A stretch of 64,000 nt of DNA from Minisyncoccota bacterium (lineage in GTDB: Bacteria; Patescibacteriota; Minisyncoccia; Phycocordibacterales; JABAAK01): positions 532,622 through 596,621 of the forward strand of contig OZ241963.1 of NCBI GenBank assembly GCA_965204115.1, in the 5' to 3' direction. Position numbers and translations under genes: made by a program. Below the pieces are notes generated by a model. The model saw only the letters and a program-made list of their open reading frames with translations, was not told the origin of the DNA and searched no databases. Shown one piece after another: positions 27,774 through 48,446 of the stretch (positions are counted from its first letter, which is position 1; the number at the start of each line of letters is the position of its first letter).

Positions 27774-27774
27774 A

Positions 27775-27793
27775 GCTCAGGTATCCACCGAAC
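27775..27793 (-). repeat. 19-bp exact inverted repeat copy A (GCTCAGGTATCCACCGAAC on plus; reverse complement identical to 48428..48446)
   Basis: Seen directly, immediately after the TGA of the giant gene. Confidence 0.8.
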
Positions 27794-28155
27794 ATCCTTA
27801 CTCACCCGCTTCCACACGCCACACCCCGTCACCCTGCGTTTCCTTATAGTTCACTTTGCACGGTGTTTGTCTAACAGCATAGCAAACTCGCTTCGCTCAG
27901 ACAGTGCTATTCGCTGTAGAAGCCAAACACCGCACAAAGCAAACGGAAACGCAAAAAGGTGCCGGTGTGTGGGTGTGTCCGCTCTCCGCTCATTGGTATG
28001 TTCGGTGTGTACCGTTCGCAGGAGGTAAAGGCGAAACTTTATCGTTATCTTGCTTTGCAGACCACCTATCGCCGTTAACGGTGTCGTGCTTTGTTGGCCG
28101 CACCCTCCGTCGGCGCTTGTTGGAAGGGTATGTGTTTATTTGTTAAAATGGAGGT

Positions 28156-28920
28156 ATGAGAAGGAAGCTCGGGCAGTATTTTTTGCGGTCGCGGAGGGTG
28201 TTGGATGCGGTTGTTGGTGCGATTGCTATTCCGTCGGAGACGGTTGTGGTTGAGGTCGGTCCGGGGAAGGGGGCGTTGACGGAACGGATTCTCACGCGGC
28301 ATACCGCTGTAGTTGCGGTTGAAAAGGACTCTGATCTTGTGATGGTGTTGCAGGAGCGATTTGCCGGGGCTGTCGCCGCAGGTCGGCTGATGCTTGTGGA
28401 AGGTGATGTGCGGGATGGTGCGTGGTCGGGTGCAGTGGCAGGTCAGTCGTATGCGGTTATCGCGAATATCCCGTATTATCTTACCGGGTCGCTTATTCGG
28501 GAGATGTTGACCAGAAGTCACCCGCCGGTTGCGATGTCTCTGGTGGTGCAGAAAGAGGTCGCGGAACGGATAGTGAGGCGAGGCAGTGTGAAAGAATCCT
28601 TGTTGTCGCTTTCGGTTCAGTTGTTTGGCACTGCGCGCTATGTGCAAACAGTACCACAGAGGGCATTTTCTCCGCAGCCGCGGGTTGATTCGGCGATTAT
28701 TGCTATTACCGACATACAAAAGCCGTCGTGGCAGGTGCAGGATGTTTTTTTTCGAGTATTGAAAACTGCTTTTCACGGGAAACGGAAGACCGTTTTGAAA
28801 AAATTTGCCGATATGCCGAATGTGCAGACCATCCTGGTCCAAAATAAGGTTTCCCCAACTGCTCGGGCGGAGGATGTGCCATTTACTGTTTGGCTTGCGG
28901 TGGCGCGGTCGCTTTCTTGA
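28156..28920 (+). CDS. rsmA: 16S rRNA (adenine1518/1519-N6) dimethyltransferase
   Basis: LGQYFL N-terminus and VEVGPGKGALTE SAM-binding motif. SD GGAGGT upstream. Confidence 0.92.
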   Translation: MRRKLGQYFLRSRRVLDAVVGAIAIPSETVVVEVGPGKGALTERILTRHTAVVAVEKDSDLVMVLQERFAGAVAAGRLMLVEGDVRDGAWSGAVAGQSYAVIANIPYYLTGSLIREMLTRSHPPVAMSLVVQKEVAERIVRRGSVKESLLSLSVQLFGTARYVQTVPQRAFSPQPRVDSAIIAITDIQKPSWQVQDVFFRVLKTAFHGKRKTVLKKFADMPNVQTILVQNKVSPTARAEDVPFTVWLAVARSLS

Positions 28921-28927
28921 TGCGCGA

Positions 28928-29293
28928 TTAGAATCCGAGGGCGGTGCCGTATAGAATGCTCAGCCTGCCGGTGAGGAGTGCTGGCGGGACGGTTGGGACG
29001 GTGCAATCAATTATCGTGCCGATCAATCCGAGTGTGGTTACACCGACTGATGGCGACAGGTAATTTTCTCGTATTGTCCAGCTTGGGTAGAGGTAGATGA
29101 TCGGTGTCGCACTATTTGCTTTTAGTGTCCAGAAGCCGGGACCCATTGATGAGACACATGGTATTGAAAATACTATTAATCCGCCTTCCGGACTGGTGAA
29201 AAAGGCACTTGCCACCGGGACGGTGATACTGCTGATTCCCACCATGAGTGGTATGAGTACTCTTGCGACTTTTATCGCCAGTTTTTGCTTCAT
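28928..29293 (-). CDS. Possible small hydrophobic membrane protein (about 122 aa), convergent with rsmA
   Basis: Distal part of minus-strand ORF 28928..29611, trimmed to the MKQKL start. Function unknown. Competes with plus-strand ORF 29097..30179 in part of the range. Confidence 0.3.
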   Translation of the reverse strand: MKQKLAIKVARVLIPLMVGISSITVPVASAFFTSPEGGLIVFSIPCVSSMGPGFWTLKANSATPIIYLYPSWTIRENYLSPSVGVTTLGLIGTIIDCTVPTVPPALLTGRLSILYGTALGF

Positions 29294-29315
29294 AACTGTC
29301 AGATATGATACCATG

Positions 29316-30179
29316 TATACAGTGAGGCGAGTTTTTTTAATTATCATTGCGGTGTTTTTTGTGGTATTGCTTGCACTTTCTTTGTTTTTACTGTTTCGCT
29401 CTGATGACGATGAGGCGGTCCTTTTCCTTGAGACCCATACCGTATTATCCGGCGAGGCAGACAGCGACGGTGATGGTGTTCCGAATTGGCTTGAAGAGAT
29501 TACCAACTCTGATGCGCTGAATGCGGAATCTTTTCCGTACAATAAAGATGTTGTGCGAGCGCGGAAGAACACTGCTGATGCGCTGCTGTATGCAGGTCCG
29601 GGCGATTTCACCGAGGAGATTATTCAGCGGTTTCTTTTTGATGTGAGCGGGTCTGCTTCTGTTACGTCGGAGGAGCGGACTCGGTTTGTTGACGAGTCGT
29701 CCGCTTATTTCCTGCAGATTGTTGAAGAGAAGGGCTTGCCTGATGTTGTTTTGTCTGTTGATGACACGGTTTCTCGGCAGGCAGTTTTGCACAGTTTTGC
29801 TTCAGCGATGCGGCGGTTTTCCGGTGCGAAGAAGCCCATTGATGTTTTGGTTTTTGATGTTTTTTCAAAAAACGCTTCAGTAACAGAGGATGCTCGTCAG
29901 GCGCGTCTGTCCTGTGATTACACCCTGCAAATCTTACCTCGGAAGGTTCCGCAGGATGTGTACACGCCGTATTACCTTGTGCTTGAGCGGGTTACCTATC
30001 TGTGTGAGGCACTGACGGTCGCACTTACTTCTATTACCGCTGAAAATTTCTTTTATGCCCTGCGATTGGTGGGGGTAGGGAAGCTGTTTGAGCGGGCTGA
30101 TGAGGGCGCTGATGATTCTACTAATCAGTTTGTTCTTGCGGTTGAGCAGGTTGTTCAATTATTAGAGCAATCGCCGTAA
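29316..30179 (+). CDS. Membrane-anchored protein with a thrombospondin-type-3-like Ca-binding motif (DSDGDGVPN)
   Basis: N-terminal TM at the ATG (MYTVRRVFLIIIAVFFVVLLALSLFLLF). Start chosen at the internal ATG of ORF 29097..30179. Confidence 0.5.
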   Translation, partial: YTVRRVFLIIIAVFFVVLLALSLFLLFRSDDDEAVLFLETHTVLSGEADSDGDGVPNWLEEITNSDALNAESFPYNKDVVRARKNTADALLYAGPGDFTEEIIQRFLFDVSGSASVTSEERTRFVDESSAYFLQIVEEKGLPDVVLSVDDTVSRQAVLHSFASAMRRFSGAKKPIDVLVFDVFSKNASVTEDARQARLSCDYTLQILPRKVPQDVYTPYYLVLERVTYLCEALTVALTSITAENFFYALRLVGVGKLFERADEGADDSTNQFVLAVEQVVQLLEQSP

Positions 30180-30209
30180 AAATAGTAAAATCTTGGTTAT
30201 ACTAAAGGT

Positions 30210-33200
30210 ATGTTTTCTTTTAATGACCAGCGTGGCGGTTTTGCCACCATCGCCATTGTCGGGGGTGTTGCTGTTGCGGTTGTTGCCGGGGGTGTGTTTT
30301 ACTTTTTGCGCAGTAGCCCGCCTGAAGTTGATACTGTTTTGAAGGATGATTCGGCTACTGTTTTCGGTGAGGAGACCGTTTTGTCTGTTGATGCGGAGGA
30401 TGCGCTGCTTCGGAGTTTGCCTCGCGGGCGTACCAATGACTATTGCTCGTTACTCGGATTGGAGCGGGAGGCCTGTGCGGGTGGTGCCGAGGGTGTGTGC
30501 CGGGACTTGTTTGGCAGCTGTAGTATTGACGTCTCCCGTGACTCCTCTGACACTATTCGGCAGTTTGCCGAGGCCTGCTTGGTTTTGCGAACTGCGGAAG
30601 GGCGGTCGCAGTATTTTGCATGGCTTGATAGCGGTGATCCGAAGCCGTTTCCGCTTTATTACGCCATATTCGGACTGGAGGAAGGTGCGTTTAACCAGAA
30701 ACAACTCACTGATGCGTACCAGGTACTATTGGATTCATACTTTTCCACTGCTTCCTGCGACAATCGTGAGGCACTTCGTCTTTTGTCTGAGGGGTATCTT
30801 TTGCTGAGCGATGCTGCCGGTCGGTCTGAATACGATGTGTGGCTGAATGGCACCGGCAGTGATCCGTTTCCCTTATACTACGCGCTTCTTGGGCTGCGTA
30901 GAGACACTTTTACGCAACAAGATTCTGCTGATGCATACAAGAAAACCTTGGATCAATATCTTTCCGGATACTACGGCAACAATACTGAGGTCTTGCGCCT
31001 CTTGACCGAAGCGCATATGATATTGTACGATCCGTCATCGCAGTCCGCCTACAGCACACTTCTTGATGGCGGTCTGTCATCTTCTTTTTCCGATATTTCT
31101 CTTGATTTGGGTGGGGACAATCTGTTTTCTGCCCTCAGTGATCTTAACCTTTCACCCACTCATCTCGGTACTGTTTTCGGCTCCTTAGACCTGTCTTCTG
31201 CTGAGCTTGTAAGTGCTGCTGCCACGCTTGATTTCTCCTCCACTGATTTAGGCGGCTTTGTTGGCGGACTCAATCTTTCTCCGGGCAATCTCAGTGCCGT
31301 TCTGAGCGATTTTAGTATCTCTCCGGATAATCTTGGCGCTGCTCTTAACGGTCTTAATCCTTCCACTGATGACCTGAGTAACATTCTGAGTGACCTTGAT
31401 CTTTCTGCCGCTGAGCTGAGTATTGTTTTGAGTGACCTTGCTCTCCCCGCCGATGAGCTGAGTACCGTTCTGGGGGATCTTACTATACCTCCAACTGACC
31501 TGCAGACCTTATTTACCAATTTCGATATCCCTTTTCTTGGTGAGGGTACTCCGTTTCCCGGTGTTGCCGTGCCGCCCGATGATTTGCCGGATGATGCTGA
31601 TGATTTACCGGCGGTTGCTATTTCTCCGAAGCTTGTTCAGATTGGTGTTAAGAATGACGGTGTTCAGCCATCATTTCTCGTGGAGGTTACGAAAGGTGGT
31701 TCTCCGTACGCCCCTGATACGCCGATTACAGTTGCTCTGGAGTGTGAGGATGCCGTTCGTCCGGCTAGTCAGCCGACCACTTCTTTGATTTTAAGCGATT
31801 TGCCGGAATCTGTCCTGCTCTCTGCCAGCAAAGGTACGACCGGGGATTTAGTTCGAGCCCCTGGTGTTACCGGGTATGTTGTATGTGCTGTTGTTGCTGA
31901 CACTAATACAGATCCGACTTACATACTTGGCTCACCCTCCTCTGCAAGAGTTACTATTGTTGGAGGTTCGTCCGGTCCGCCTTGTGATAGGCCGTCGTGC
32001 CCCGGTGATCCGACCAGCGGTCCGTTGCCTACTGTTTCCATTGCCGCTGTTGAGCCGCGTGTTGCCAGCGGTGATGATGCGGTGTTTCGTGTTTCTTCCA
32101 GTTCCGATATTGTCGGGTCGTTGCATGTGCAGTATTCATGCAGTGCCAATACCAGTGTCGATAACACTTATCTCGGCGAGAATGATGTTACGATTCAGGG
32201 TGGTTCCGGGCAGTTTGCTACTACCATCACCCTGCCGACGAATGAGGATGTTTCTGATACCGTTACATGTGAACTACTTGATAGTGTAAAAAATGCGTAT
32301 AGGATTTTAGGTCGTGATGCTTCTGTCGGAGTCGGGTTGTTGGGATCAGGGGACATTGAAGGGTATGATCCTGCATTGCCGACCGTCTCCCTGATAGCGT
32401 ATCGCACGACACCGGGCAATTCTGGTAAGTTTTCAGAGAAGGTTAGCAGTACCGTTGTTGGTGATACGGACACTTATATTGGACTGGTGATTGATGACCC
32501 TGAATCAGATTCTTTTGGTGATGAGGATCCGGACTCCCGGAAGGAGGTTTCTGACGGTGAGTTGTATGTGCTGTATGTGACAGATTTTGGTAATACCATT
32601 TCTGTGCTGCCGGGCGATGGAGGGACTGTCACTGTTGGCATTAGTAAGGATAGGGAGGTTCCGGACTCGGAGCCGCTGTTTAATGCTGTCGCCGATACCG
32701 TTGTTGCCAAGCATTCAGGGTATGGGAGTCCTCCCACCGCTCTGCATCACAGTGCTGGGGGTGGTAGTCGTTGGAGAGGTAATTTTGCCGAGGGCAGTAT
32801 CTTTATTGAAATAACCGCAGATCATCGCGTTATTATGCGGAATGATGTCGAGGGAAATGTGATTGTTTGTGGCTATGATCGCGGTGTTCTGTATTGTGCG
32901 ACTTATGAGGATGCAGATAGATTTGCCCCGAGAAATATCTTTGTTACCGCGGAGTGTCGTAAAGAATTTTCGGATCGTGAGAGAAGTCGGGAGGACTCCG
33001 GTCTTATCACAGGCGGTCGGCGCGTGGTTGATCGCGGTAGTGAGCCGTCGTATGCGTTGCCGGTGTTCGGGTATGCTCCTGTTCGTCGCGGTGATCCCGA
33101 GGGTGACTTATACACCTTTATTCGTTCTGACGGGACTTACGATGCCCTTGATGAAGATGCAGGTCCTGATTCGGTGTTTAGTTCGATCCGTATCGATCCT

Positions 33201-36200
33201 TTTCTTGAGCCGGATACGACTTTTTCCTGTAGGATTTCCGGTGGCGGGGCAGAGGATGGGTATAATGTCGGCACTCCTTATGCGGAAGTGCAGGTGCGAC
33301 CGCGTGCGACGATATCTCTCGGTGTGCATGGTGCGCAGCGTGTTGCTGATGAGTCAGGGCTTCTCGGTGAGCCGGTTGCGCATCTTGATCGTCGTCAAGC
33401 GGAGTATAATTTTGATTCTGACAACTCTGACTTTTCTGATTTTCCCACCGGCCCAACCGGAGGTAGAGAGATTCCTGGTGTTGATGCATCGTTTCGTGAT
33501 GTGTCCGCCAGTTTAGGGGCGTCTCTTAGTGTTGGGTTTCTCACTTCTTTTGGTGCGTGTGCCGGTTCCTCTCTCTTGAATCGAGGAATCAGTGAGCTTG
33601 CTAATAGAATTGGTCTTGGCGGTTTTGGTGCTGTTCCGGTTAGATCTGCAAAACTTGAACTCAAGGAGTGTGTTTTGGATTCCGCTGTTTCCGGCGCTGT
33701 TTTGGAGGTGCTTACTGCTGTTGCGAGAGATTATATCACCTGGGCATCTGAGGGATTTGAGGACAAGCCGCTGTTTGTGAAGAATCCGACCACTTTTTAT
33801 AAGAACCTGCGCGATGATGCAATCGGTCGTGTTATTGATCGGAGTGGTCTTGGGTTTCTCTGCGATATCGGCGTTCCTAATTTTGAAGCGTACGAGGCAA
33901 CGCTTAAGATTAATTTGCAGCAGCAATATCTCGGCATCGCTACTGATCGACCGAGGTGTACCTATAGTGATTTGGCAAATAACCTTGAGGATTTTTATGA
34001 TGATGCTTCAGATGTTTTGCGTGATCTTGATCCGGAGTATTTGAGAAGCTTTGGTTTTACTATTGACGGCTCTGTCAGAACGCAGAACGCAGGCACTTTT
34101 CAGTTTCCGCCGTCTGATGGATTTACCGGCAATCAGCTTGATGCGTTCTCGGCGAACCTTGATCGCGCTATGAAGAAGACGGAGAATAGTAGTAATTTTC
34201 TCCTGGCTGTTTCCCAGGTGGATAGTGATATTCGCGAGGCGCGGCAGGAGTTTGATGCCGCTGTGAAGCCGGTTTCTCAGATTTTTAATCCGAATGACCC
34301 GACATCAATTGGTGCGTTTCGGGAGTGTAATGAGACAGAGAATCCGGAAGGTGATGTTGACTGTTTTTCATTGAATGTATCCGGTTCTAAGATTACTGAA
34401 ATGACCGGTAAGGGGATTAGCTCGCTTTCCGACCGATTGTTGCAGGTTGATGAGTTTGGGGAGTTTGGTCAGTTGGTTGGTCTGGCGGTGAACGCGACTT
34501 CTGCCGGCTTGATGAAGAAGTATTTAAGCAGGGGCTTTGGGCATTCAGTAGACAGAGAGACCGCGGATCTGTTGAGTAATATTGAAAAAGATATTGATGC
34601 CTCTCTCAGGCCGTCAAGTGCTCGTAAAGTTAGTTTGAGTGAGAACTGGTGGTCGGTGTTTTTTGAAAGAAACGCGTTTTATAATGACTTGCTGAATGCT
34701 GAGATGTATGCGAATGATGTCTTTACCTTATTGCAGTATATTGGGTCCGGTTTGTACCGGGATCCGAAGCGAATTGGTGATAAGGCATATATCCCTCCTG
34801 TCCGTCCTTATACCGCCTTTGATACTTTGCGCCATGCGAGTACGAGTGGTACACCAGGGCAATTTCCCATATTTTCGTATGGCAATTTGATTGGTTTTTC
34901 TTCCGCACAACTTACGAGGAATTATGCTAATTTTTATCACGCTCCAGATATTAAGAGTGCTGTTGAGGAGCGTGCTTTTGAGCAGCTTAATGGTAATAAT
35001 GGATGGGCGAAGGAGCGACTCCAGCATATTTTTAACGGCTGGGTCAGTGATGAATCCGGAGAGGAGCAAGGGTATCGAAAGATGGTGGCGATTGAGCGGT
35101 TTGATGATGCGCATCGTTTTTTGTCTAATGGTGAGGCGCGTTCAGCGTACAATGCTTTTCTCGGCAAGATGGGGGACTTTATTGAGAATACGCCGTATGA
35201 TCGGCAAGGCACGAGTAATTGGTGGAAGAAGAGTATGAAGAATATGCCAGACGATGTGAGAGAAGATATAGCCGGCCCTGGTCCTTCTTTGCCGGGACAT
35301 TTAGCAGGACTTAAGGATACAGATTCGCTCACCGACGATCAGAGTGTTCACTATCCCGAGGACCACACCGATTTTTCAAAACGTGTTTTCGGCGTCGGCT
35401 CTTCGGAGGAAAGGACTTGTGGTAATACACCCTGTGCTGATTGCCTGTTTCGTCGTTCAAGAGCGGCGTCAGGGAGTGCCGCGACGTGTACAACGGAAGG
35501 AGGAACAACATACCCTTGCATCAATGATATTGCGGGAAATATAGGACAGTGTATATATTTTAAGGGCGGTACTTCTGATCTTAGTGCTGGTGTTTGTGGT
35601 CTTTCGCTTACGGATCCGAGGTTTGAAACCCATTGCGGGGTCTGCTGGCCTCACAATCTCAATGGCAATACCGATCAAAATAAGTTTACTGCGTTTACGG
35701 GTGAGGTTGAGTACTATTGTCCTGCGGGAGGGACTTCCGAAAAGTTGCTGGATGCTCAGGGGGACCTTGTTACCATCAAACAATTGCGTAAGATTTACGA
35801 AGCAACATTGGCGGTGCATATTCGTTTAGTTGGAACGCTTGATGAGTATCGAGGCGCTCCACTGCTCAGCTCGCCTATTCATACTTACCGCAGAGAGATT
35901 TTGGATGCTTATCGGGCAGATCCTGATTCTGATGATCTTGATAGTGGCGGCGGGTGGGCAGTTGTGCAGCAGGAAACTTTAAAAAAGTTTCGTGACGGCA
36001 CAATGCAGGTGTATATTCCTCTTGACGATGACGAGTTTGGTGAGCAGGAGTATTTGACTCTTTTGAGTAGTGTTGGGTGTGTGAAAGCGGATGCGATTAC
36101 TTTTCAGGACGGTGCTTTTATCAGAAGTTATCAGGAGATGAGTTGTGTTTTAGGAACAGTTTTTCAGGATCAGGCGTACTTTGTACTTCGTCGAGAGAAT

Positions 36201-37031
36201 GATGATCTCAATAAGCGGCGTGTTGTGTATCTTGCTTGCGGGTATGATGATGATTCTGATGATGATTCTGTCGCTCCCGGCCAGCAGTCAGATGCAGACA
36301 AGCGTTTCCGGTTCAAGAAGGGCGTGGAAGGAAACCCAAGACCACTTCCGCCGGTGACCCTGGAGAAGGGGGAGGATTCGGTTATCTTTCCGGTGCCGAA
36401 ACCGATTTGGTCGCCGTTTGATCTTGGTGACCGCACTCCTTATAATAAGGATGACACTCCTCCTAACTACACTCCATTAACCGGTCAACGGATTCGTTGC
36501 TCTATAGATTTGAAGAGGACTCAGGTGAGTGCTGATGTTGCTGTGGATACGCTTACCCAAGTTGTCACTGTCTCGGAGCATCTGTCAAATGATGGTTCTC
36601 CCGTCACTTTTCACTCTCTGGTTCGGAATACTTTGGGGGGTATTGTTACCTCTCGTCTTGAGGATCGAAAGGATATGGTTGCTGAAGCACTGTTTTATAC
36701 CTATGTTTGGGGGTGGTATACCGGATTTATAGAGATGCCGTATTACTCTATTCAAGGACTGTTATCTAACCCGCCGGTAATTTTGACGGATAGCAAGGTG
36801 GCGGTGACGGCGAATATTCAGGGTAATCAGGAGGCGTTGCGACGGTATCGTTTTTTGAGTTCGCTGTTTGCCAATGAGAGTGATTCGCGGTTTTCGTCAA
36901 AAAACTTTGGTTTTCTTACTCCTGCTGAGGCGCGTGCTGAGTACGAGCATTCTTTTGACGATCGGTTTAATGGATATTTTGGACGCGCGCTCGGAGAATT
37001 TTTTGAGCTGCTCCCCAATATGCATCAGTAA
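30210..37031 (+). CDS. Giant (2273 aa) membrane-anchored surface protein. One N-terminal TM, three degenerate J-domain-like repeats lacking HPD, about nine 14-aa tandem repeats, then a large Cys-containing domain of unknown function
   Basis: Single uninterrupted 6.8-kb ORF. TM GFATIAIVGGVAVAVVAGGVFYF. J-like repeats PLYYALLGL...DAYKKTLDQY...LRLLTEAHMILYD span nt ~30432-31065. 14-aa period xxVLSDLxLSxxEL spans nt ~31092-31530. Confidence 0.75.
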   Translation: MFSFNDQRGGFATIAIVGGVAVAVVAGGVFYFLRSSPPEVDTVLKDDSATVFGEETVLSVDAEDALLRSLPRGRTNDYCSLLGLEREACAGGAEGVCRDLFGSCSIDVSRDSSDTIRQFAEACLVLRTAEGRSQYFAWLDSGDPKPFPLYYAIFGLEEGAFNQKQLTDAYQVLLDSYFSTASCDNREALRLLSEGYLLLSDAAGRSEYDVWLNGTGSDPFPLYYALLGLRRDTFTQQDSADAYKKTLDQYLSGYYGNNTEVLRLLTEAHMILYDPSSQSAYSTLLDGGLSSSFSDISLDLGGDNLFSALSDLNLSPTHLGTVFGSLDLSSAELVSAAATLDFSSTDLGGFVGGLNLSPGNLSAVLSDFSISPDNLGAALNGLNPSTDDLSNILSDLDLSAAELSIVLSDLALPADELSTVLGDLTIPPTDLQTLFTNFDIPFLGEGTPFPGVAVPPDDLPDDADDLPAVAISPKLVQIGVKNDGVQPSFLVEVTKGGSPYAPDTPITVALECEDAVRPASQPTTSLILSDLPESVLLSASKGTTGDLVRAPGVTGYVVCAVVADTNTDPTYILGSPSSARVTIVGGSSGPPCDRPSCPGDPTSGPLPTVSIAAVEPRVASGDDAVFRVSSSSDIVGSLHVQYSCSANTSVDNTYLGENDVTIQGGSGQFATTITLPTNEDVSDTVTCELLDSVKNAYRILGRDASVGVGLLGSGDIEGYDPALPTVSLIAYRTTPGNSGKFSEKVSSTVVGDTDTYIGLVIDDPESDSFGDEDPDSRKEVSDGELYVLYVTDFGNTISVLPGDGGTVTVGISKDREVPDSEPLFNAVADTVVAKHSGYGSPPTALHHSAGGGSRWRGNFAEGSIFIEITADHRVIMRNDVEGNVIVCGYDRGVLYCATYEDADRFAPRNIFVTAECRKEFSDRERSREDSGLITGGRRVVDRGSEPSYALPVFGYAPVRRGDPEGDLYTFIRSDGTYDALDEDAGPDSVFSSIRIDPFLEPDTTFSCRISGGGAEDGYNVGTPYAEVQVRPRATISLGVHGAQRVADESGLLGEPVAHLDRRQAEYNFDSDNSDFSDFPTGPTGGREIPGVDASFRDVSASLGASLSVGFLTSFGACAGSSLLNRGISELANRIGLGGFGAVPVRSAKLELKECVLDSAVSGAVLEVLTAVARDYITWASEGFEDKPLFVKNPTTFYKNLRDDAIGRVIDRSGLGFLCDIGVPNFEAYEATLKINLQQQYLGIATDRPRCTYSDLANNLEDFYDDASDVLRDLDPEYLRSFGFTIDGSVRTQNAGTFQFPPSDGFTGNQLDAFSANLDRAMKKTENSSNFLLAVSQVDSDIREARQEFDAAVKPVSQIFNPNDPTSIGAFRECNETENPEGDVDCFSLNVSGSKITEMTGKGISSLSDRLLQVDEFGEFGQLVGLAVNATSAGLMKKYLSRGFGHSVDRETADLLSNIEKDIDASLRPSSARKVSLSENWWSVFFERNAFYNDLLNAEMYANDVFTLLQYIGSGLYRDPKRIGDKAYIPPVRPYTAFDTLRHASTSGTPGQFPIFSYGNLIGFSSAQLTRNYANFYHAPDIKSAVEERAFEQLNGNNGWAKERLQHIFNGWVSDESGEEQGYRKMVAIERFDDAHRFLSNGEARSAYNAFLGKMGDFIENTPYDRQGTSNWWKKSMKNMPDDVREDIAGPGPSLPGHLAGLKDTDSLTDDQSVHYPEDHTDFSKRVFGVGSSEERTCGNTPCADCLFRRSRAASGSAATCTTEGGTTYPCINDIAGNIGQCIYFKGGTSDLSAGVCGLSLTDPRFETHCGVCWPHNLNGNTDQNKFTAFTGEVEYYCPAGGTSEKLLDAQGDLVTIKQLRKIYEATLAVHIRLVGTLDEYRGAPLLSSPIHTYRREILDAYRADPDSDDLDSGGGWAVVQQETLKKFRDGTMQVYIPLDDDEFGEQEYLTLLSSVGCVKADAITFQDGAFIRSYQEMSCVLGTVFQDQAYFVLRRENDDLNKRRVVYLACGYDDDSDDDSVAPGQQSDADKRFRFKKGVEGNPRPLPPVTLEKGEDSVIFPVPKPIWSPFDLGDRTPYNKDDTPPNYTPLTGQRIRCSIDLKRTQVSADVAVDTLTQVVTVSEHLSNDGSPVTFHSLVRNTLGGIVTSRLEDRKDMVAEALFYTYVWGWYTGFIEMPYYSIQGLLSNPPVILTDSKVAVTANIQGNQEALRRYRFLSSLFANESDSRFSSKNFGFLTPAEARAEYEHSFDDRFNGYFGRALGEFFELLPNMHQ

Positions 37032-41188: not shown

Positions 41189-41201
41189 CGAGGGTAGTGG
41201 G

Positions 41202-41230: not shown

Positions 41231-41236
41231 TATATT

Positions 41237-41440
41237 GGACTTCAATAGTCCCTGTCCTGCCGTGCGGTCAGTTTACTGACCACAAAAATGGACATACTGA
41301 AGTTCTTTAAAAGTGACCTTCCTTATTAGTGCCCGCAAGGGGTAGCTGCTTCGGCGGCATGGGAGGTCCATAACTATCTGATAGAGTTACGCTTGCCCAA
41401 CCGGTTTCCATAAGACTGGTTGGGCATTTGTTATTTTTAT
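41237..41440 (+). ncRNA. Structured leader or small RNA of about 200 nt between the consensus promoter and an intrinsic terminator, immediately upstream of the VirB3/VirB4-like genes (candidate attenuator, riboswitch or sRNA)
   Basis: Four hairpins: GGACT-tcaat-AGTCC, GGTCAG-TTTA-CTGACC, CCC-GCAA-GGG (GNRA tetraloop) and GCTGC-UUCG-GCGGC (UUCG tetraloop). Terminator GCCCAACCGGT/ACTGGTTGGGC at 41395..41425 followed by ATTTGTTATTTTTAT. No ORF inside. Confidence 0.4.
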
Positions 41441-41458
41441 ACGCTATACTGTGTTTGT

Positions 41459-41914
41459 ATGCGCTTTCAGGTTCCGCAAAATTTAGATGTGCCGGATACT
41501 ATTCTTTTGGGTTTGGATTTTAGGCAGCTGATTTACCTTGGTGGTGCTGCCGGACTTTTGGTGTTTTTGTTTCTGTTTTTTGGTATTTTGCCGACGGTCT
41601 TTATTGGTGGTCCGGTTGCTATTCTTGCGGGTTTTTTGTCGTTTTTTACCTATAATAACCAGAAGTTTGTCACGCTTTTTCAATCGTTGATACGGTTTTT
41701 TTCCCGGAAGAAGATGTATGTGTGGCGGCGTGGTACTATTGACGCAGCAGTGCGGCGCACAGCTAAGGAGGATGACTCCGTTGACGGGGAATTTGTGCAC
41801 CCGGACTCTTATTCGCAACGACAGCGGCTGGATAAGGTTCGTGAAGTGAGTGCCAATCTTGTTTTTTCTGATGATGGGGGTGACTCGTATGATGAGCTTG
41901 ATATTGTTCTATGA
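41459..41914 (+). CDS. VirB3/PrgI-like small 2-TM protein of T4SS-type systems
   Basis: About 150 aa with a two-TM hairpin (LIYLGGAAGLLVFLFLFFGILPTVFIGGPVAILAGFLSFFTY), directly before the VirB4 ATPase. Start chosen at the ATG downstream of the terminator; track start 41420 overlaps the terminator. Confidence 0.55.
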   Translation: MRFQVPQNLDVPDTILLGLDFRQLIYLGGAAGLLVFLFLFFGILPTVFIGGPVAILAGFLSFFTYNNQKFVTLFQSLIRFFSRKKMYVWRRGTIDAAVRRTAKEDDSVDGEFVHPDSYSQRQRLDKVREVSANLVFSDDGGDSYDELDIVL

Positions 41915-42531
41915 CTGCAAACACCACCACACAATCATTTGTTCCTTTGAAGGATATTCAAAATGGTATTGTTACCCGGGATGACGGTGTTTTGTGTGCC
42001 GTGTTGTTGGTTTCGTCTGTCAATTTTAACCTGAAGTCGGAAGATGAGCGGCAGGCCATTCTCTATCAGTTTCAATCTATCTTGAATTCGCTTGAGGTCG
42101 GTGTTCAGATTATTGTCCAGTCGCGACGGCTCAATATTAAGCCCTATCTGCAGTACCTTGAGGAGGTGTATGAAAAACAGACCATTGAATTGTTGCGTTT
42201 GCAGACGCGGGAGTATATTAACTTTATTTCTGATTTTACGGAGCGCAATGAGATTATGACAAAACAGTTTTTTGTTGTTGTTTCGTATTCCCCTGTTTCG
42301 TCCGGCGGTCTTGCCGGCGGACTGCCTTTTTTAGGCAAGAAGGAGGCGACATCGGAGCAAAAAATGACCGAGGAGCATGTTACGCAGTTGCTGCAGCGAG
42401 TTTCTTTTATCCAGAATAATATACGGGCATTAGGATTGCGAGCGGTGCAGCTCGGTACTGAGGAGGTGACTGAGTTGCTGTACAAGACCTTCAATCCGGG
42501 TGATACGCAGACGCCTCCTCCTGCAACTTAA
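41911..42531 (+). CDS. VirB4/TrbE/CagE-like ATPase, N-terminal domain fragment (206 aa) of a split gene
   Basis: VPLKDIQNGIVTRDDGVLCAVLLVSSVNFNLKSEDERQAILYQFQSILNSL matches the N-terminal CagE_TrbE_VirB region of Gram-positive-type VirB4 (PrgJ/TcpF-like). ATGA overlap with the upstream gene. Confidence 0.7.
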   Translation: MTANTTTQSFVPLKDIQNGIVTRDDGVLCAVLLVSSVNFNLKSEDERQAILYQFQSILNSLEVGVQIIVQSRRLNIKPYLQYLEEVYEKQTIELLRLQTREYINFISDFTERNEIMTKQFFVVVSYSPVSSGGLAGGLPFLGKKEATSEQKMTEEHVTQLLQRVSFIQNNIRALGLRAVQLGTEEVTELLYKTFNPGDTQTPPPAT

Positions 42532-42580
42532 TACATTTGTTTTGCCTCCGTGATGTTTATCTGGTGTATTATATTGGTAT

Positions 42581-44413
42581 ATGGGTATTTTTGATGCGTT
42601 TGGTGGCAAGAAGCAGGGGGATTCCTCAGTGCGTGCTGTTACTGAGGAGGATTTTATTCCTGAAGCTGCGTTCAGTCCGGCAACTATCGGCTTGCGGGAT
42701 GTTATCGCGCCGCCGGCTATACAAATAACTTCACGACATGTTGCTTTAGGGAGTAAGTTCGCCCGATCTTTTGCGGTGGTGTCATACCCGCGGTTTTTGA
42801 ACGAAGGATGGTTTTCTCCGGTTATTAACTTGAGCAAGGAATTTGATATCGCCATCTTTGTGCATCCGATGAATTCAAAAGATGTGTTGCGGAAGTTTCG
42901 GCGAAAAGTGGCGCAGGTTGAGAGTCAGATTATTGAACGGGAGAGCAAGGGGATGGTGCGTGATCCGAAGCTTGATACCGCACACCAAGATCTTGAGGAT
43001 TTGCGTATGAATATTCAGCAGGCGACTGAGCGGATGTTTGAGGTTGGGGTGTACATCACTATTTACGGTGAGACGGTTGAGGAAATCAATGAAGTTGAGA
43101 AAGATATGCGGTCGCTGCTCGAAGGGAAACTTATTTTTGTGAAGCCGACTGTCTTTCAGCAGGAGCAGGGGTTTCGGAGCACAAGCCCGTTCGGCACTGA
43201 TTTGCTTTCTATTCACACAAAGCTGAACTCTGAGCCGTTGTCAAGCTTGTTTCCGTTTATCTCTTTTGATTTGTCCGCTGAGAAGGGGATACTGTACGGT
43301 ATCAATCAGCACAATGCCTCACTTATTCTGTTTGACCGTTTTTCTCTGCCGAACTATAACTCAGTCACCTTCGCGACCTCCGGTGCAGGGAAGTCGTACG
43401 CCATGAAGCTTGAGGTGCTGCGATCGTTGATGGTCGGTGTTGATGTTATCGTGATAGACCCGGAGCGGGAGTTTGAGCGATTAGCGCAGGCAACGGGCGG
43501 TCGTTACTTTAATGTTTCATTGAATTCGGAACACCATGTTAATCCGTTTGATTTGCCACCGGTCGGTGAGGATGAGAATCCGTCCGATGTATTGCGCAGC
43601 ACGGTTATTAACCTTGTCGGTTTTTTTCGGGTGCTGCTCGGCGATTTGTCGCAGGAGGAAGAGTCAATTATTGATCACGCGATTCGTGAAACATATGCAT
43701 TGAAGGACATCACGATGGAAGGGGGTTTTGAGCATATTGATCCTCCGCTTATTTCTGACTTTGCGCTTGTGCTCGCGGGAATTGAGGGCGGTGAGCAGCT
43801 TGCTGAGCGACTCAGTCGGTATACAACCGGTTCGTGGGCCGGATTTTTGAATCAGCCGACCAACATTGATATCGGTCGGCGGTTTGTTGTTTTTTCTATA
43901 CGGGATATGGAGGATGATTTGAAGACCGCTGCTATGTATATCATTACGCGGTTTATTTGGAATAATATTCGGAAAAAATTGAAGAAGCGGCTGTTAGTGG
44001 TTGATGAGGCGTGGATTATGATGCAGTCGGGCGACACCGCTTCTTTTTTGTTCGGTTTGGTAAAACGCGGTCGGAAGTATTACCTCGGTGTGGGTACTAT
44101 TACGCAGGATGTCGGAGATTTTTTGCGGTCGGATTATGGTAAGCCGATATTGAATAACTCTTCTTTGATTTTGCTGTTGCGGCAGTCGGCGACTTCCATT
44201 GACCTGGTGCAGCAGACCTTTAACCTGACTGACAGTGAGAAGTACCTCCTCCTTGAGGCAGCGGTCGGTGAAGGGCTTTTTATTGCCGGTTTGAAGCGGG
44301 TTGCTATAAAAATCATCGCCTCTTTCACTGAGGATAAAATTATTACCACCGATCCGTCTCAGCTCCTTAATCAGCAGCGGGTTGTGCAGCAGCAGCCACT
44401 TGATGCGGTATGA
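42581..44413 (+). CDS. virB4: VirB4/TrbE-like T4SS ATPase, C-terminal ATPase part (610 aa)
   Basis: Walker A FATSGAGKSYAMK, Walker B LLVVDEAW. The TcpF/PrgJ-like middle region IAPPAIQITSRHVALGSKFARSFAVVSYPRF is also present. Confidence 0.9.
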   Translation: MGIFDAFGGKKQGDSSVRAVTEEDFIPEAAFSPATIGLRDVIAPPAIQITSRHVALGSKFARSFAVVSYPRFLNEGWFSPVINLSKEFDIAIFVHPMNSKDVLRKFRRKVAQVESQIIERESKGMVRDPKLDTAHQDLEDLRMNIQQATERMFEVGVYITIYGETVEEINEVEKDMRSLLEGKLIFVKPTVFQQEQGFRSTSPFGTDLLSIHTKLNSEPLSSLFPFISFDLSAEKGILYGINQHNASLILFDRFSLPNYNSVTFATSGAGKSYAMKLEVLRSLMVGVDVIVIDPEREFERLAQATGGRYFNVSLNSEHHVNPFDLPPVGEDENPSDVLRSTVINLVGFFRVLLGDLSQEEESIIDHAIRETYALKDITMEGGFEHIDPPLISDFALVLAGIEGGEQLAERLSRYTTGSWAGFLNQPTNIDIGRRFVVFSIRDMEDDLKTAAMYIITRFIWNNIRKKLKKRLLVVDEAWIMMQSGDTASFLFGLVKRGRKYYLGVGTITQDVGDFLRSDYGKPILNNSSLILLLRQSATSIDLVQQTFNLTDSEKYLLLEAAVGEGLFIAGLKRVAIKIIASFTEDKIITTDPSQLLNQQRVVQQQPLDAV

Positions 44414-44916
44414 GTATAGAGAACACAGCAAAATCTTTCGGGGCGGCATTTGCCTTTACCGGTGTGGCATGGCTTTCTGAGGTGATCAGTGGAGCATTGG
44501 GTTCTCTGCAGAGCTCTTCCGTTACCTTTCTTCTTGATGGCGGCATCACCGTCGGTATCCTGGCAATTACTGCCGGTCTTGTTGATTTTTTTCTCGGCAC
44601 TGATATTATTGCGACAGCTGCTGGGATTCTCGCGGTTTTTTTCGGTCTTCAAGCGTTTGTTTCTTTGCTGACGCTGTGTGTTTTTTATGCTATTGTTCGC
44701 ATGTCTCCGAAAGGCACCTACACGCTTCTTGATTGCATCATTGCTGCCGGTGTTTGCCTGCTTGAGGCGTTGCCATTTGTCTCCACTTTTGTTTTTTGGG
44801 GGATGTTTGCAGCTTACTTACGGCGACAGCAGATTTCACAGGTTGCTTCGATACTTCCTCAGACGCGTGCGTTTGGTGTTGTGGCAAAAGGTGTTCAGGC
44901 GTTGGGGAAGTCGTAA
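44410..44916 (+). CDS. Integral membrane protein (168 aa, about four TM) translationally coupled to virB4
   Basis: ATGA overlap with the virB4 stop. Hydrophobic; no known domain. Confidence 0.6.
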   Translation: MSIENTAKSFGAAFAFTGVAWLSEVISGALGSLQSSSVTFLLDGGITVGILAITAGLVDFFLGTDIIATAAGILAVFFGLQAFVSLLTLCVFYAIVRMSPKGTYTLLDCIIAAGVCLLEALPFVSTFVFWGMFAAYLRRQQISQVASILPQTRAFGVVAKGVQALGKS

Positions 44917-44975
44917 GAGCGATGGAGCGTTAGGGAAAGTTGGAGGTCTTCCGGATAAATAATTCGGGCACCTTT

Positions 44976-45710
44976 TTATTCCCCCTTTTTGTTACTTTGG
45001 AGGATGTTTGCTACATAACTTTCCAGTTGGGCAGTGGTGAGGGAGCCGACGCTTTCAAAGAGCAGTTCGCCGTTACCGGAGATGAATTGGATGTAGGGTG
45101 TTTCGTCAATATTGAGTTCACGGACATCCTGTATTGCTTGTAGTGTTTGGGGAGCAATCTCTCTTCCTTCTTTTCTGCATTGCTCAACTTTGTCAAAAGG
45201 GATGTTGAGGCGTTTCATCAGCATTTTGTAGCGGTCGTTGGGGTACTCAATTTCCATTACGCCGCCGATGAGGGACTCCTCTATGAATTTCCATGCGGTT
45301 ATGCGTGCTTGTTCGCCGGCATGGAGACGGATGCATTCAAGTGTTTGTGCTTTTTTGACGGAGGTTTCGTTGATGTGAAACCCATTTCTCCACACCCATG
45401 CCACTCTGCCGGACACCCCCCAGTCGCTTTTGATGAGTGTCTTTGCATGCGGGTGAAATTCTTTGCAGTACGGACATTCCAGATCGCCGTACTCCACGAT
45501 GAAGAGGTCTGCTTTCGGATTGCCGAATATGAGATCAATTTTTTTGTTTACTGGCCTGAAGTAGCGGTCATCACGGGTGTCTATCATCACTTCTACGGCG
45601 TTGCTATGCTGTACAAGAAGTACGGCACTCACGAGCAGGGCGATTGTGATGATGAGCACATCAACAGCGATTTTGTATCCACCTCTCTTTTGTGCTTGTG
45701 TTGCTTCCAT
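44976..45710 (-). CDS. DsbA-like thiol:disulfide oxidoreductase (thioredoxin fold), membrane-anchored
   Basis: CPYC active site (DLECPYCKEF). N-terminal TM anchor. Start at the internal ATG (MEATQ...). Confidence 0.8.
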   Translation of the reverse strand: MEATQAQKRGGYKIAVDVLIITIALLVSAVLLVQHSNAVEVMIDTRDDRYFRPVNKKIDLIFGNPKADLFIVEYGDLECPYCKEFHPHAKTLIKSDWGVSGRVAWVWRNGFHINETSVKKAQTLECIRLHAGEQARITAWKFIEESLIGGVMEIEYPNDRYKMLMKRLNIPFDKVEQCRKEGREIAPQTLQAIQDVRELNIDETPYIQFISGNGELLFESVGSLTTAQLESYVANILQSNKKGE

Positions 45711-45733
45711 ACAGTGTTCATTATATCGTGAAA

Positions 45734-46309
45734 CTAGAATAAGCTGACGGATGCATCTTCCACATTCTCTTCTCTTTTCCACTGTGAGGTGTCTATCGGT
45801 ATGGTGTGTATTGATCCGAGGTCGTTGTACAGGAGCTCCTCATTTTTCAGCGCGTAATCAAAGATGTCTTTTGTGATACGCACATCATCAATGCAGTACT
45901 GTTTCACCTCTTCAACCTTTCCTTGCTTCCACCATTCCACTGCCTGCAGTCCGTCGCCGCTTTTATTGATGCCGAGTGTTCCTTCGGCGATCCAGTCAAG
46001 GCGTATTCGTCTGCCGAGTGATTGACGGACACTTTCCAGGAGGTCAATGCTGTCGTACTCTTTTGTTAAATCCATCGGTGCGTATTTGTTCAGCAGAGGG
46101 GTGTCAAAATGGTTGTTGTTGAATCCGATGAGTGTGTCAATGTTGCGCATCACTTCCCAGAGATCCGGCAGTGTTTCCTGTGTGTATGCGGTGTATGCGT
46201 CGTCGGTGTAGCTGTATACCGCGATGACGGCGAGTGTAAGGTCCTCGGGGTTGCGTTTCTCGTTGTTAAACACATCTGAGGTTTCTATGTCAAAAACAAG
46301 TCCTTTCAT
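45734..46309 (-). CDS. DEDD-family 3'-5' exonuclease (RNase T/DnaQ-like)
   Basis: FDIETS Exo I motif. Later HFD and D motifs. Confidence 0.7.
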   Translation of the reverse strand: MKGLVFDIETSDVFNNEKRNPEDLTLAVIAVYSYTDDAYTAYTQETLPDLWEVMRNIDTLIGFNNNHFDTPLLNKYAPMDLTKEYDSIDLLESVRQSLGRRIRLDWIAEGTLGINKSGDGLQAVEWWKQGKVEEVKQYCIDDVRITKDIFDYALKNEELLYNDLGSIHTIPIDTSQWKREENVEDASVSLF

Positions 46310-46316
46310 AGTGGGA

Positions 46317-47543
46317 TTATGGTTTCTTAGTAATAAAGGTTACCACATCATCTATTGTGGTGAGTGTTTCGGTCTTTCTGTCCGCGAGTGCGCGTACGGC
46401 GAATGAGCCGTTTTCCAATCCGATGACATAGCGTATTCCCAGCTGTTCGTAGTGTTTATAGGTATCAGTGGTTTTTTTCTGTGGGATGGCGCCGATGAAT
46501 GTTGTTGTTGTGTGCTGCCGTAGTGCCGCCGCCGCGCGCATGCCTTTCGCAGTGTCCTGTTCGTCGGTTACATAGAGGGCTATAACGGCATTTGTTGTCG
46601 GGGTTGGGAGATTGTATGCTTCAAGGCAGTCAAGGAGCACGACATCACCCATGCCGAAGCCGACTGCCGGCAGCGGATTACCGCCGTATGCGGTGATGAG
46701 TGTATTGTAGCGACCGCCGCCGGCAACGGAACGCGGTGCTATTTTTTGGTCTTTTGCGTAGAGCTCAAAGACGATGCCGGTGTAGTAGTCAAAGCCGCGG
46801 ATAATTTTTTGGTCATACTCTGCGGTGATGGTTTTCGGGAGGAGTTCCATAACGGTGCGAACGCGTTCCGGTGTTTCGTTGAGCGCGTCGTCCAGCGCGA
46901 CAGCGGTTATGTCGTATGCGGACAACTGTTCGTCAAACTCCTTTTGACTCATTTTTTCCCGTTTATCTAACAGGCGCAAAGTATCCCGGAGCCGGTTTTT
47001 TGCTAATCCCAGATTGATGAGGGTGTGTTCCATAGTCGCGCGGTCATTCAGGCGGACAATGAAATCATCTTTTTGAAACCCGATTTTTTCCAGTGCGGCG
47101 AAAGCGACCATTATGACTTCTGCATCTGCCCATGCGGTGTCGTCACCGAAGAGATCAACATTGAGCTGTATGTGTTCCCGTGAGCGACCCTTTTGTGTGT
47201 TTTCATAGCGGAAGACACTGCCGATGGAGAATACTTTGAACGGTGTTTTGAATGCTCTTTTTTTTTGGAGATCAACTACCATGGTGCTGACACCGGGGGT
47301 GATTTCCGGCCGCAACAGCACATCGCGTCCGCCTCGGTCGGTGAATCGGTAGGTTTGCTCCCGCATAATTTCTTCGCTGGTTTTGTCGGTATAGATGTCT
47401 GTGGATTCAAGCACAGAGGTTTTGTATTGCTGAAAGCCGTATGCTGCTGCCGCACTGACCCATCCGTTGAGTACCTGCGCCAGTTTTTCGTGTTCTTTTG
47501 GAGGGAATATTCGCATTCCTTTCATATGTACACAGCATACCAC
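46317..47543 (-). CDS. hisS: Histidyl-tRNA synthetase
   Basis: Class II aaRS motifs: LRPEITPGV, FRYENTQKGRSREHIQ and GGGRYNTL. Confidence 0.92.
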   Translation of the reverse strand: MVCCVHMKGMRIFPPKEHEKLAQVLNGWVSAAAAYGFQQYKTSVLESTDIYTDKTSEEIMREQTYRFTDRGGRDVLLRPEITPGVSTMVVDLQKKRAFKTPFKVFSIGSVFRYENTQKGRSREHIQLNVDLFGDDTAWADAEVIMVAFAALEKIGFQKDDFIVRLNDRATMEHTLINLGLAKNRLRDTLRLLDKREKMSQKEFDEQLSAYDITAVALDDALNETPERVRTVMELLPKTITAEYDQKIIRGFDYYTGIVFELYAKDQKIAPRSVAGGGRYNTLITAYGGNPLPAVGFGMGDVVLLDCLEAYNLPTPTTNAVIALYVTDEQDTAKGMRAAAALRQHTTTTFIGAIPQKKTTDTYKHYEQLGIRYVIGLENGSFAVRALADRKTETLTTIDDVVTFITKKP

Positions 47544-47782
47544 ATTGCTGGCACTGCTTTGGCGGGGAAAGATGTATATACATAGGGGATTTTGGTGAAA
47601 TCCACACAGTTGCTCGAGGCGCTGTGAGTGTCCTGTATACTATTAGTATGATATTTGGGTTTGGAAAAAATAAAAAACAGCAACAAGTTAAGAACCAGGA
47701 GGGCGGGGATGCTGCTGATAAGCAAAATATGGAAGAAGGTGCGGCAACGCCGGAGCAGGAAGGTCAACCTTCTTAATGTTGT

Positions 47783-48235
47783 ATGCTGCTTGACACCTTG
47801 CGAAACGATATGCGTACAGCAATGAAGGCGAAAGATGCGGTTCCGTTGGGAACCTTGCGGATGGTGTTGACTGCTTGTACGAATGCTTTAGTCGCGCAAG
47901 GTAAGAAGCCGGATGAATCTCTGGATGATGCTGCGGTTGTGGCGGTTTTGAAGCAGTTGGTCAAGCAGCGGAAAGAGTCCGCTGAGCAGTATCGTGTTGC
48001 CAATCAGGAGGAGCGGGCAGCGGCAGAGGATGCGGAACGAGCGGTGCTTGAGCAGTACTTGCCGCCGGAAATGTCCGAGGAGGATATTCGGGCGATAGTA
48101 ATGAAGAAACAGCAGGAATTGGGAGTGACTGAAAAAAAGGATACCGGCACTTTGATGAAGGCGGTGATGGGTGAGCTGAATGGGCAGGCAGATGGTGCGA
48201 CGGTCTCCCGAATTGTCGGTGAGGTTCTTGCTTAG
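47783..48235 (+). CDS. GatB/YqeY-domain protein
   Basis: 150-aa helical protein with the YqeY-like pattern (VLKQLVKQRKESAEQY...). Confidence 0.8.
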   Translation: MLLDTLRNDMRTAMKAKDAVPLGTLRMVLTACTNALVAQGKKPDESLDDAAVVAVLKQLVKQRKESAEQYRVANQEERAAAEDAERAVLEQYLPPEMSEEDIRAIVMKKQQELGVTEKKDTGTLMKAVMGELNGQADGATVSRIVGEVLA

Positions 48236-48307
48236 TGTAAAGGTTGTTTCTTGCCTTACCCACAGCGAACGGTACACACCGAACACTACACAGAGAAATC
48301 GCGACGC

Positions 48308-48407
48308 GGAGTATAGTCCGTTCCGAGCAACTTAACTATGGGGAAATGTCCACCATCTTTTACAAGGCAGTGCCATCATTGTTGCGAGGAACGGAGCTAT
48401 ACGGAGG
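48308..48407. other. Long imperfect hairpin with a roughly 19-bp stem enclosing about 50 nt
   Basis: GTATAGTCCGTTCC at 48311..48324 pairs with GGAACGGA(G)CTATAC at 48388..48402 with one bulge; extended by GAGCAAC/GTTGCGA. Confidence 0.4.
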
Positions 48408-48427
48408 GTTGCCCCTGAAGCAGAAGC

Positions 48428-48446
48428 GTTCGGTGGATACCTGAGC
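48428..48446 (+). repeat. 19-bp exact inverted repeat copy B (GTTCGGTGGATACCTGAGC), 4 nt from the 3' end of tRNA-Thr
   Basis: Reverse complement of 27775..27793; seen directly. Confidence 0.8.

Follow-up and report, generated by a model that had tools for sequence, protein, structure and literature searches.

Short non-autonomous repeats with inverted ends, whose presence is polymorphic between relatives, are familiar as the Rickettsia palindromic elements and the Neisseria Correia elements, and miniature inverted-repeat transposable elements (MITEs) and palindromic selfish elements can supply promoter parts to their neighbours and occur even in reduced genomes. The locus discussed in this article is a window of 64 kb (the whole stretch of DNA that was analysed, contig OZ241963.1 of a Minisyncoccota bacterium, positions 532,622 to 596,621), in which an exact 19-mer stands in inverted orientation at the two ends of a 20.7-kb segment, once behind a large adhesin gene (element A) and once behind tRNA-Thr (element B). 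Two further systems belong in the comparison, namely the REP/REPIN elements mobilised by RAYT transposases (PMC3116915, PMC3337134, PMC3733652) and the invertible promoters known as invertons (PMC11602134).

I will argue that the 19-mers are the outer ends of two copies of a hairpin-forming non-coding repeat of about 170-360 bases. The fuller reading, to which I would give a probability of roughly 55%, is that A and B are two copies of one lineage-specific, non-coding foldback repeat module that is tied to the tRNA-Thr trailer and that spreads or rearranges at the DNA level. The very small genomes of Patescibacteria contain few repeats, and no literature report of palindromic or MITE-like elements in this group was found; here, even a genome of about 0.66 Mb retains a structured non-coding repeat that compensatory change has maintained, that has moved between intergenic sites and that is linked to the repeated flipping of a tRNA gene.

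Two copies of a hairpin-forming repeat

The 19-mer, GTTCGGTGGATACCTGAGC, occurs once per strand in the whole 64-kb window, at 48428-48446 (+) and 27775-27793 (-), with no further match in the window at up to three mismatches and no 19-mer match of any kind in 100 dinucleotide shuffles of the window (0/100), and in this respect the sequence-only reading from which the analysis set out was right. It was equally right about the surroundings: element A starts 2 nt past the TGA stop (27771-27773) of a 1314-aa FG-GAP/PG-binding protein, the adhesin, and the 19-mer of element B stands at a distance of 3-4 nt from the tRNA-Thr(TGT) 3' end on the minus strand, such that GCTCAGGTATCCACCGAAC lies downstream of the upstream gene, in the same relative orientation, in both copies and on either strand. 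The enclosed genes are also those it had listed (rsmA, a 2273-aa open reading frame (ORF), PrgI/TraC/TraG-like genes, a thioredoxin-like protein, an exonuclease, hisS and yqeY). Absent from that reading was another inverted pair of greater length, at 27999-28028 (+) and 48256-48285 (-), 30 nt at 90% identity with an exact portion of 21 nt, TGTTCGGTGTGTACCGTTCGC, which is the longest inverted repeat in the whole window. Because this pair lies inside both copies, by 206 nt from the 19-mer in A and 143 nt in B and on the same side in each, the element that is repeated must be larger than the 19-mer, which forms just its outer end.

The 19-mer core GGTATCCACCGAAC is complementary to the 21-mer core GTTCGGTGTGTACC, and element A (27775-28132, +) and element B (48446-48250, -) each fold into a single closed rod-like hairpin whose base helix is the 19-mer/21-mer pair; the inverted ends amount to a 14-nt pair of these two cores with one mismatch and one G.T, subterminal on the 3' side. 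After the hairpin follows a shared arm motif of about 20 nt, TTCGC-N5/6-GGTAAGGCGAA, and in element A a downstream module of about 100 nt that ends 24 nt before the rsmA start codon. Six related genomes were compared, the window and the loci L001, L026, L028, L031 and L032, the loci having been obtained from MurG and RsmA homologues. Since their flanking genes are 86-95% identical in nucleotide sequence, that is 5-14% different, these are related species and not strains. The parts of the two elements are as follows.

27775-27793, plus strand: 5' motif of element A, GCTCAGGTATCCACCGAAC, which supplies the 5' strand of the base helix; exact match, paired with 28000-28013 in the minimum-energy fold
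27780-28013, plus strand: hairpin A, a 234-nt rod-like quasi-palindrome of A type; fold of -104.5 kcal/mol, z = -6.4
27999-28019, plus strand: 3' motif of element A, TGTTCGGTGTGTACCGTTCGC, which supplies the 3' strand of the base helix; all 21 nt identical to 48265-48285 (-)
28015-28035, plus strand: arm motif TTCGCAGGAGGTAAAGGCGAA, found after the hairpin in every copy by regular expression and by alignment across copies
28036-28132, plus strand: downstream module ("module iii"), which includes CGCCGTTAACGGTGTCGTGCTTTGTT; delimited by aligning the filled site with the empty site of locus L030
48428-48446, minus strand: 5' motif of element B; exact match
48271-48441, minus strand: hairpin B, 171 nt, of B type and homologous to the C type of L026 and L031; fold of -71.5 kcal/mol, z = -3.1
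48265-48285, minus strand: 3' motif of element B; 21 nt exact with element A
48250-48269, minus strand: arm motif of element B, TTCGCTGTGGGTAAGGCAAG, abutting the yqeY stop codon at 48235; from alignment

An RNAalifold consensus of element B and the two C-type copies (L026 and L031) contains 53 pairs, 17 of them with compensatory changes on both sides, and a covariance model (R1) built from these B-type and C-type copies only, three sequences in all, recovers element A at 27771-28022 (+) with 41.8 bits (E = 6e-10) and the A-type copy of L001 at 6063-6315 with 34 bits, both over their full length and on the expected strand. The model also matches element B at 48262-48450 (-), and it finds nothing further in the window, the related loci or 23 other loci. 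When the five members are aligned to the model, 92% of the cells pair, versus 35-47% with the partners slid, and 25 of the 53 pairs have changed on both sides; none of 500 shuffles reaches any of these measures. The inner helix covaries at 15 of its 18 pairs, and the base helix made by the 19-mer and 21-mer is nearly invariant, with 10 of 13 pairs that never vary. The C-type copy of L026 likewise folds into a closed rod with a base helix, in which the extra A that C-type copies carry on the 5' side and the extra T on the 3' side (CCGAAAC / GTTTCGG) form an A:T pair. The 19-mer is therefore identical in A and B because the base-helix sequence is strongly conserved across the family, and its identity does not stem from a recent event joining both sites.

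Some further observations concern the hairpins themselves. A 22-nt apical loop, AAACTCGCTTCGCTCAGACAGT, is common to A- and D-type hairpins (window 27884-27905, L028 9531-9552, L001 1-22 and 6180-6201), and the stems beneath it have no detectable sequence similarity between the two types. The sense strand of element A is C-rich (G 0.22, C 0.31 over 27780-28013), unlike the G-rich window strand to which it belongs, and the better fold is that of its antisense (7 G.U pairs versus 1); this composition may date from a time when the element lay in the other orientation, as it does in L001.

The tRNA-Thr trailer, dispersed copies and the question of an RNA

The hairpin begins 4 nt past the tRNA-Thr discriminator base in all six related genomes, and in all seven copies with a visible upstream gene it starts 2-4 nt past that gene in sense orientation. 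To this extent the suggestion of a conserved 3'-end motif holds, the motif being the base-helix 5' half of a hairpin placed just past every visible upstream gene; with only two copies in 64 kb, the motif is not a frequent genome-wide 3'-end element. A general tRNA-trailer hairpin is likewise ruled out, as tRNA-Gln and tRNA-Leu in the window carry ordinary short hairpins. At tRNA-Thr itself the hairpin is of B type in the window, C in L026 and L031, A in L001, and D in L028 and L032. The B and C types are homologous (78% over 333 nt) and the copy on the tRNA-Thr side of L001 is 89% identical to element A of the window over 323 nt; D-type hairpins have a base helix of their own and partial A-type units behind them, and the one in L032 is only 66 nt long. 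Beyond these six genomes, in relatives at 86% and 84% MurG identity (the closest named relative by MurG, at 86%, is a Candidatus Kaiserbacteria metagenome-assembled genome, and the organism of the window is a relative of that patescibacterial group), there is no hairpin beside tRNA-Thr and no match to the model, and the tRNA gene adjoins murG there too, on the minus strand at 86% and on the plus strand at 84%. The tie of the module to the tRNA-Thr trailer is ancestral in the clade.

The same intergenic region has other occupants. In the 86% relative (L002 8958-9790; L003, L004 and L006 are alike) about 0.8 kb with ORFs of 61 and 180 aa lies between yqeY and tRNA-Thr, flanked by a direct repeat of some 20 nt of the yqeY 3' end (TTCAAGCAAGAACCTCRCC), and this segment looks like an insertion at the same hot spot. 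In the 84% relative (L005 1-9900) the plus-oriented tRNA-Thr stands just upstream of murG, yqeY is not its left neighbour, and to its left runs a series of ORFs of about 180-230 aa without Pfam domain, together with VWA and AAA_5 proteins; its tRNA trailer, CTTGGTTTAGGCATCCAAG, is weakly similar to the 19-mer. L032 alone has an additional hydrophobic ORF of 194 aa without Pfam domain between the hairpin units and murG (4725-5309).

Copies of the module also come and go elsewhere. In L030 the site between adhesin and rsmA is empty, with a 55-nt spacer from the adhesin stop to the rsmA start, and against it the window has a 358-nt insertion, 27775-28132, after which native sequence resumes at 28133 with TGTTTAT, the same native heptamer that follows both known right junctions (adhesin/rsmA and traC/traG). 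The traC/traG site, empty in the window, is occupied by an A-type copy in L001, whose contig starts inside that copy, and by a remnant in L026. Three intergenic sites, adhesin/rsmA, yqeY/murG and traC/traG, are thus polymorphic, filled in some genomes and empty or with a remnant in others, and dispersed and remnant copies of the module do exist at intergenic sites other than the tRNA-Thr trailer. Module iii recurs in L001, L026, L028, L031 and L032. At the right junction of element A a consensus scan picks out one more feature.

28120-28149, plus strand: rsmA promoter-like site with -35 TTGGAA and a TG-extended -10 TAAAAT; consensus scan only

Because the -35 of this site lies in the last bases of element A and the -10 in native sequence, so that the site straddles the junction, the insertion may have altered rsmA expression.

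How the preferred reading would work can be put as follows. All copies are built on one plan, with a 5' motif, a long imperfect hairpin, a 3' motif, an arm of about 20 nt and, mostly, a downstream module of 95-150 nt; the hairpin interior evolves fast with its pairing retained, and the 5' and 3' motifs form a nearly invariant base helix of 13-14 bp. The home of the module would be the tRNA-Thr 3' trailer, and copy A would be a dispersed duplicate that came to lie, in reverse chromosomal orientation, between the end of the adhesin gene and rsmA, which is why the ends would read as an inverted repeat 20.6 kb apart. The module would be propagated and rearranged as DNA, its conserved base-helix and arm sequences serving as sites of recombination or template switching, and since the module always lies just downstream of a gene in sense orientation, it would probably be transcribed as a long 3' hairpin as well.

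Several points weigh against this reading. No target-site duplication is visible at the single filled/empty pair, the window and L030, a comparison too diverged to be decisive, with a left junction that no longer aligns closely and unlike C-termini of the adhesin. The Pfam-scanned ORFs of the window revealed no transposase, integrase or invertase domain (most of 0.6-49.7 kb, minus the 2273-aa ORF at 30210-37031 and the ORFs of 49.7-64 kb), and none in the called genes of the related loci, as judged by precomputed Pfam hits with some cut genes left out. The copy number is low, at two in 64 kb. Finally, compensatory evolution of the stem around an invariant base helix would fit a host-level RNA function equally well or better.

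That last point leads to the alternative which survives best, namely that the hairpin is a functional structured RNA, co-transcribed with tRNA-Thr (or, for copy A, with the adhesin mRNA) and either released or used as a 3' trailer, an idea that I hold to be possible rather than probable. Such an RNA could be a substrate for RNase III or 3' processing, a barrier to read-through into yqeY or murG, or a regulatory RNA, and, again tentatively, a protein might bind its base helix, and copy A might be either a paralogue of the gene or a module that was co-opted. The constant position in sense orientation past the upstream gene in 7/7 copies speaks for an RNA, as do the way in which tRNA and hairpin remain together through inversions, the strong covariation with conserved internal loops and a conserved U.G pair in the base helix, and the retention of the module in six genomes despite the divergence of their flanking genes. 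However, Rfam searches with element types A, B, C and D returned only tRNAs at the gathering threshold and nothing relevant even at E <= 10, a U-tract is absent, and the sense strand has no folding advantage, there being no consistent sense/antisense bias in G.U pairs or fold energy and the A and D types folding better antisense. The hairpin at one and the same site has, moreover, been replaced in some genomes by sequence that the model does not detect (A versus D type, including the 66 nt of L032), the relatives at 86% and 84% MurG identity lack it, and dispersed copies with remnants elsewhere are typical of repeat DNA.

There is no terminator-like site (GC-rich stem plus U-tract) at element A or B, and blastn against plasmids and phages gave no match. 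The collection scans were exact-match only, would miss variants such as the GTTTCGG... of L026 and do not prove absence elsewhere: the 20-mer of the 3' motif had no match in GTDB species representatives and a single one in IMG/VR, inside an ORF and attributed to chance, the 19-mer had none in IMG/VR, and an 18-mer had seven in JGI metagenomes, all in coding-looking sequence without the partner motif and likewise put down to chance. A 6S-like RNA was rejected, as there is no model match, no central bubble and only 66 nt in L032, and so was the target-site hairpin of a diversity-generating retroelement behind the adhesin, with no reverse transcriptase in the scanned ORFs, no template/variable repeat pair and the same element following a tRNA. 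A likeness of the arms to IS5/IS903 ends was too weak to be used.

A flipped cassette beside a collinear block

Three features at the tRNA-Thr locus complete the parts needed here.

48450/48451-48523, minus strand: tRNA-Thr(TGT); ARAGORN and Rfam
48524-48544, minus strand: upstream flank of tRNA-Thr with TATAAT 9 nt before the mature 5' end (48533-48538); read from the sequence
48545-48564, plus strand: degenerate arm-like TTTGTGTGTGTGAGTAGGCG between the tRNA and murG promoters; a weak likeness, by eye, to the reverse-complemented yqeY-side arm of L026

The promoter, tRNA-Thr and hairpin form a cassette that lies in minus orientation in the window, L001 and L031 and in plus orientation in L026, L028 and L032, and yqeY and murG stay fixed while the orientation of the cassette between them differs. 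Read in opposite orientations, window 48429-48546 and L026 9568-9685 are 99.2% identical over 118 nt, the arm beside yqeY matches between the same two genomes in the same orientation, and the junctions mapped between them fall at the edges of the arm motifs; the C-type cassettes of L026 and L031 are likewise inverted relative to each other (87.5% over 385 nt). The upstream flank travels with the tRNA in the inverted cassettes, and the yqeY-side arm is also present in L026, L028 and L032, its other neighbour there being the tRNA promoter in place of the hairpin. Inverted arm motifs flank the cassette, 24 nt at 75% in L026 and 18 nt at 89% in L028. A single flip does not account for the difference between the plus and minus states, with module iii on different sides and the murG-side arm degenerate in the minus-oriented genomes. 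The orientation does not track flanking-gene similarity. The tRNA-Thr cassette has flipped repeatedly, and the 20.7-kb block shows no sign of inversion. Where the sequence-only reading had looked to relatives for a signal of rearrangement, there is one, and it is local, both sites being hot spots of rearrangement: it consists of the presence or absence of element A and the inversion of a cassette of 0.3-0.5 kb that runs from arm through promoter, tRNA-Thr and hairpin to arm; it does not extend to the 20.7-kb block.

Three independent assemblies break inside the module, at position 1 of L001, L027 and L029 (A-type loop, 3' motif, downstream module), two of these breaks being Logan contig starts, which fits either a repeat or mixed orientations in the samples; the module would explain assembly breaks at this locus in these organisms. 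In L031 (9520-9580 and 9965-9980) the downstream module has a 58-nt insertion that holds a perfect palindrome (GGCGTGCA...TGCACGCC), and a 12-mer, CGAGTAGGCGTG, is directly repeated at both ends of the inverted cassette.

These flips invite the idea that the tRNA-Thr cassette is a site-specific inverton, in which a dedicated recombinase would recognise the arms or the base helix, the 19-mer would be part of the recognition architecture and copy A would be a solitary site. I consider this quite improbable. It draws on the occurrence of both orientations among close relatives without regard to flanking-gene similarity, on the 18-24 nt inverted arms, on a promoter-like TATAAT inside the cassette and on the assemblies that break inside the module, but genomes of differing orientation are 5-14% apart elsewhere, so that the flips are possibly old fixed events, the states are not simple mirror images (module iii and the murG-side arm, as above), and no recombinase gene was seen in the scanned window ORFs or the called genes of the fetched loci. 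That the cassette is an actively switching, tRNA-carrying inverton in a bacterium of the candidate phyla radiation (CPR), with the base helix and arms as putative sites for a recombinase or structure-specific nuclease, is in my estimate unlikely too; if true, the hairpin family would add a new kind of folded recombination site, or else a novel structured RNA, and element A would be one of the solitary copies seeded at other places in the genome.

The large segment between the elements is a simpler matter. GC skew is about +0.16 inside it and positive outside as well, and it keeps its sign across both junctions. In L030 the succession UvrD-adhesin-rsmA is preserved, as is that of the 1076-aa protein, PrgI, TraC, TraG, the thioredoxin-like protein (DsbA), exonuclease, hisS, yqeY, tRNA-Thr and murG in L001, L002, L026, L028 and L031, with L032 collinear over the part that its contig covers. 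Since skew and synteny are unbroken, the 20.7-kb block is not inverted, and the proposal of inversion breakpoints at its ends finds no support. The corresponding explanation, that the 19-mers are recombination sites for a past or switching inversion of the whole segment, can point to exact 19- and 21-nt inverted repeats as a possible substrate and to the C-rich sense strand of element A on the G-rich strand as fitting past opposite residence, but it is very improbable and already largely refuted, because the skew differs neither in sign nor in size between inside and outside, relatives with and without the elements are collinear at both junctions, and a crossover at the 19-mers would put rsmA beside tRNA-Thr and yqeY beside the adhesin, an arrangement seen in no genome examined. 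The other suggestion, a remnant att site of a tRNA-targeting element, is not supported either, the repeats being inverted and not direct and lying outside the tRNA, 4 nt past it, with no integrase in the scanned window ORFs and with core, syntenic genes between them. Distant short inverted repeats, in other words, need not mark the breakpoints of a large inversion.

Elsewhere in the window, two repeats lie within the adhesin gene (24285-25850), a direct one of 284 nt whose copies are 100% identical (24880-25163 / 25567-25850) and another of 215 nt at 97% (24570-24784 / 25182-25396), and 24-26 kb is the only stretch of the window with clearly negative GC skew (-0.12, -0.20). The ORF-free stretch at 1-2.4 kb is only apparent, as a minus-strand ORF there runs off the left end of the window.

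Comparison with known systems

Set beside the REPINs, the module shares a good deal: both are non-coding intergenic hairpins of two inverted halves with conserved ends, often at gene 3' ends, and both are vertically inherited within a lineage and linked to rearrangements. REPINs, however, are assembled from REP units of 20-40 bp that bear a GTAG or CGTC tag, are present tens to hundreds of times and come with a RAYT gene, whereas the module has hairpins of 171-234 nt, two copies in 64 kb and ends of the form GCTCAGG... / ...GGTAAGGCGAA without such a tag, and no RAYT-like gene or Y1-transposase domain was found in the Pfam-scanned ORFs. With MITEs it has in common the inverted ends and the dispersed presence/absence polymorphism, but neither a target-site duplication, at the one diverged filled/empty pair, nor a parent insertion sequence, in the scanned window ORFs and the called genes of the fetched loci, was found here, the module interiors have diverged far beyond the norm for MITEs and yet stay paired through compensatory changes, and one copy always goes with tRNA-Thr.

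The attC sites of integrons offer a likeness of another kind, as each is likewise an imperfect hairpin closed at its base by conserved inverted boxes, variable inside in sequence and length, and located just downstream of an ORF. The boxes here, ACCGAAC / GTTCGGT, are each off the RYYYAAC / GTTRRRY consensus by one position, though, the hairpins measure 171-234 nt as against the usual 57-141 nt, and there is no intI or other integrase among the scanned ORFs and no cassette array. An inverton, in turn, would be a segment of a few hundred bases with flanking inverted repeats of about 20 nt, a promoter inside and both orientations to be found, all of which the tRNA-Thr cassette has, but its orientations are seen between related genomes and not within one population, it carries a tRNA gene, there is no invertase nearby and its two states differ by more than a flip.

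If the base helix should turn out to be a protein recognition site, the locus would point to a new recombination or RNA-processing activity in CPR bacteria. The module fails the testable defining features of each of the described families, and it works most like a REPIN, a MITE or another of the palindromic intergenic repeats; its anatomy, a conserved base below a variable stem, resembles that of attC, and the flipping cassette resembles an inverton.

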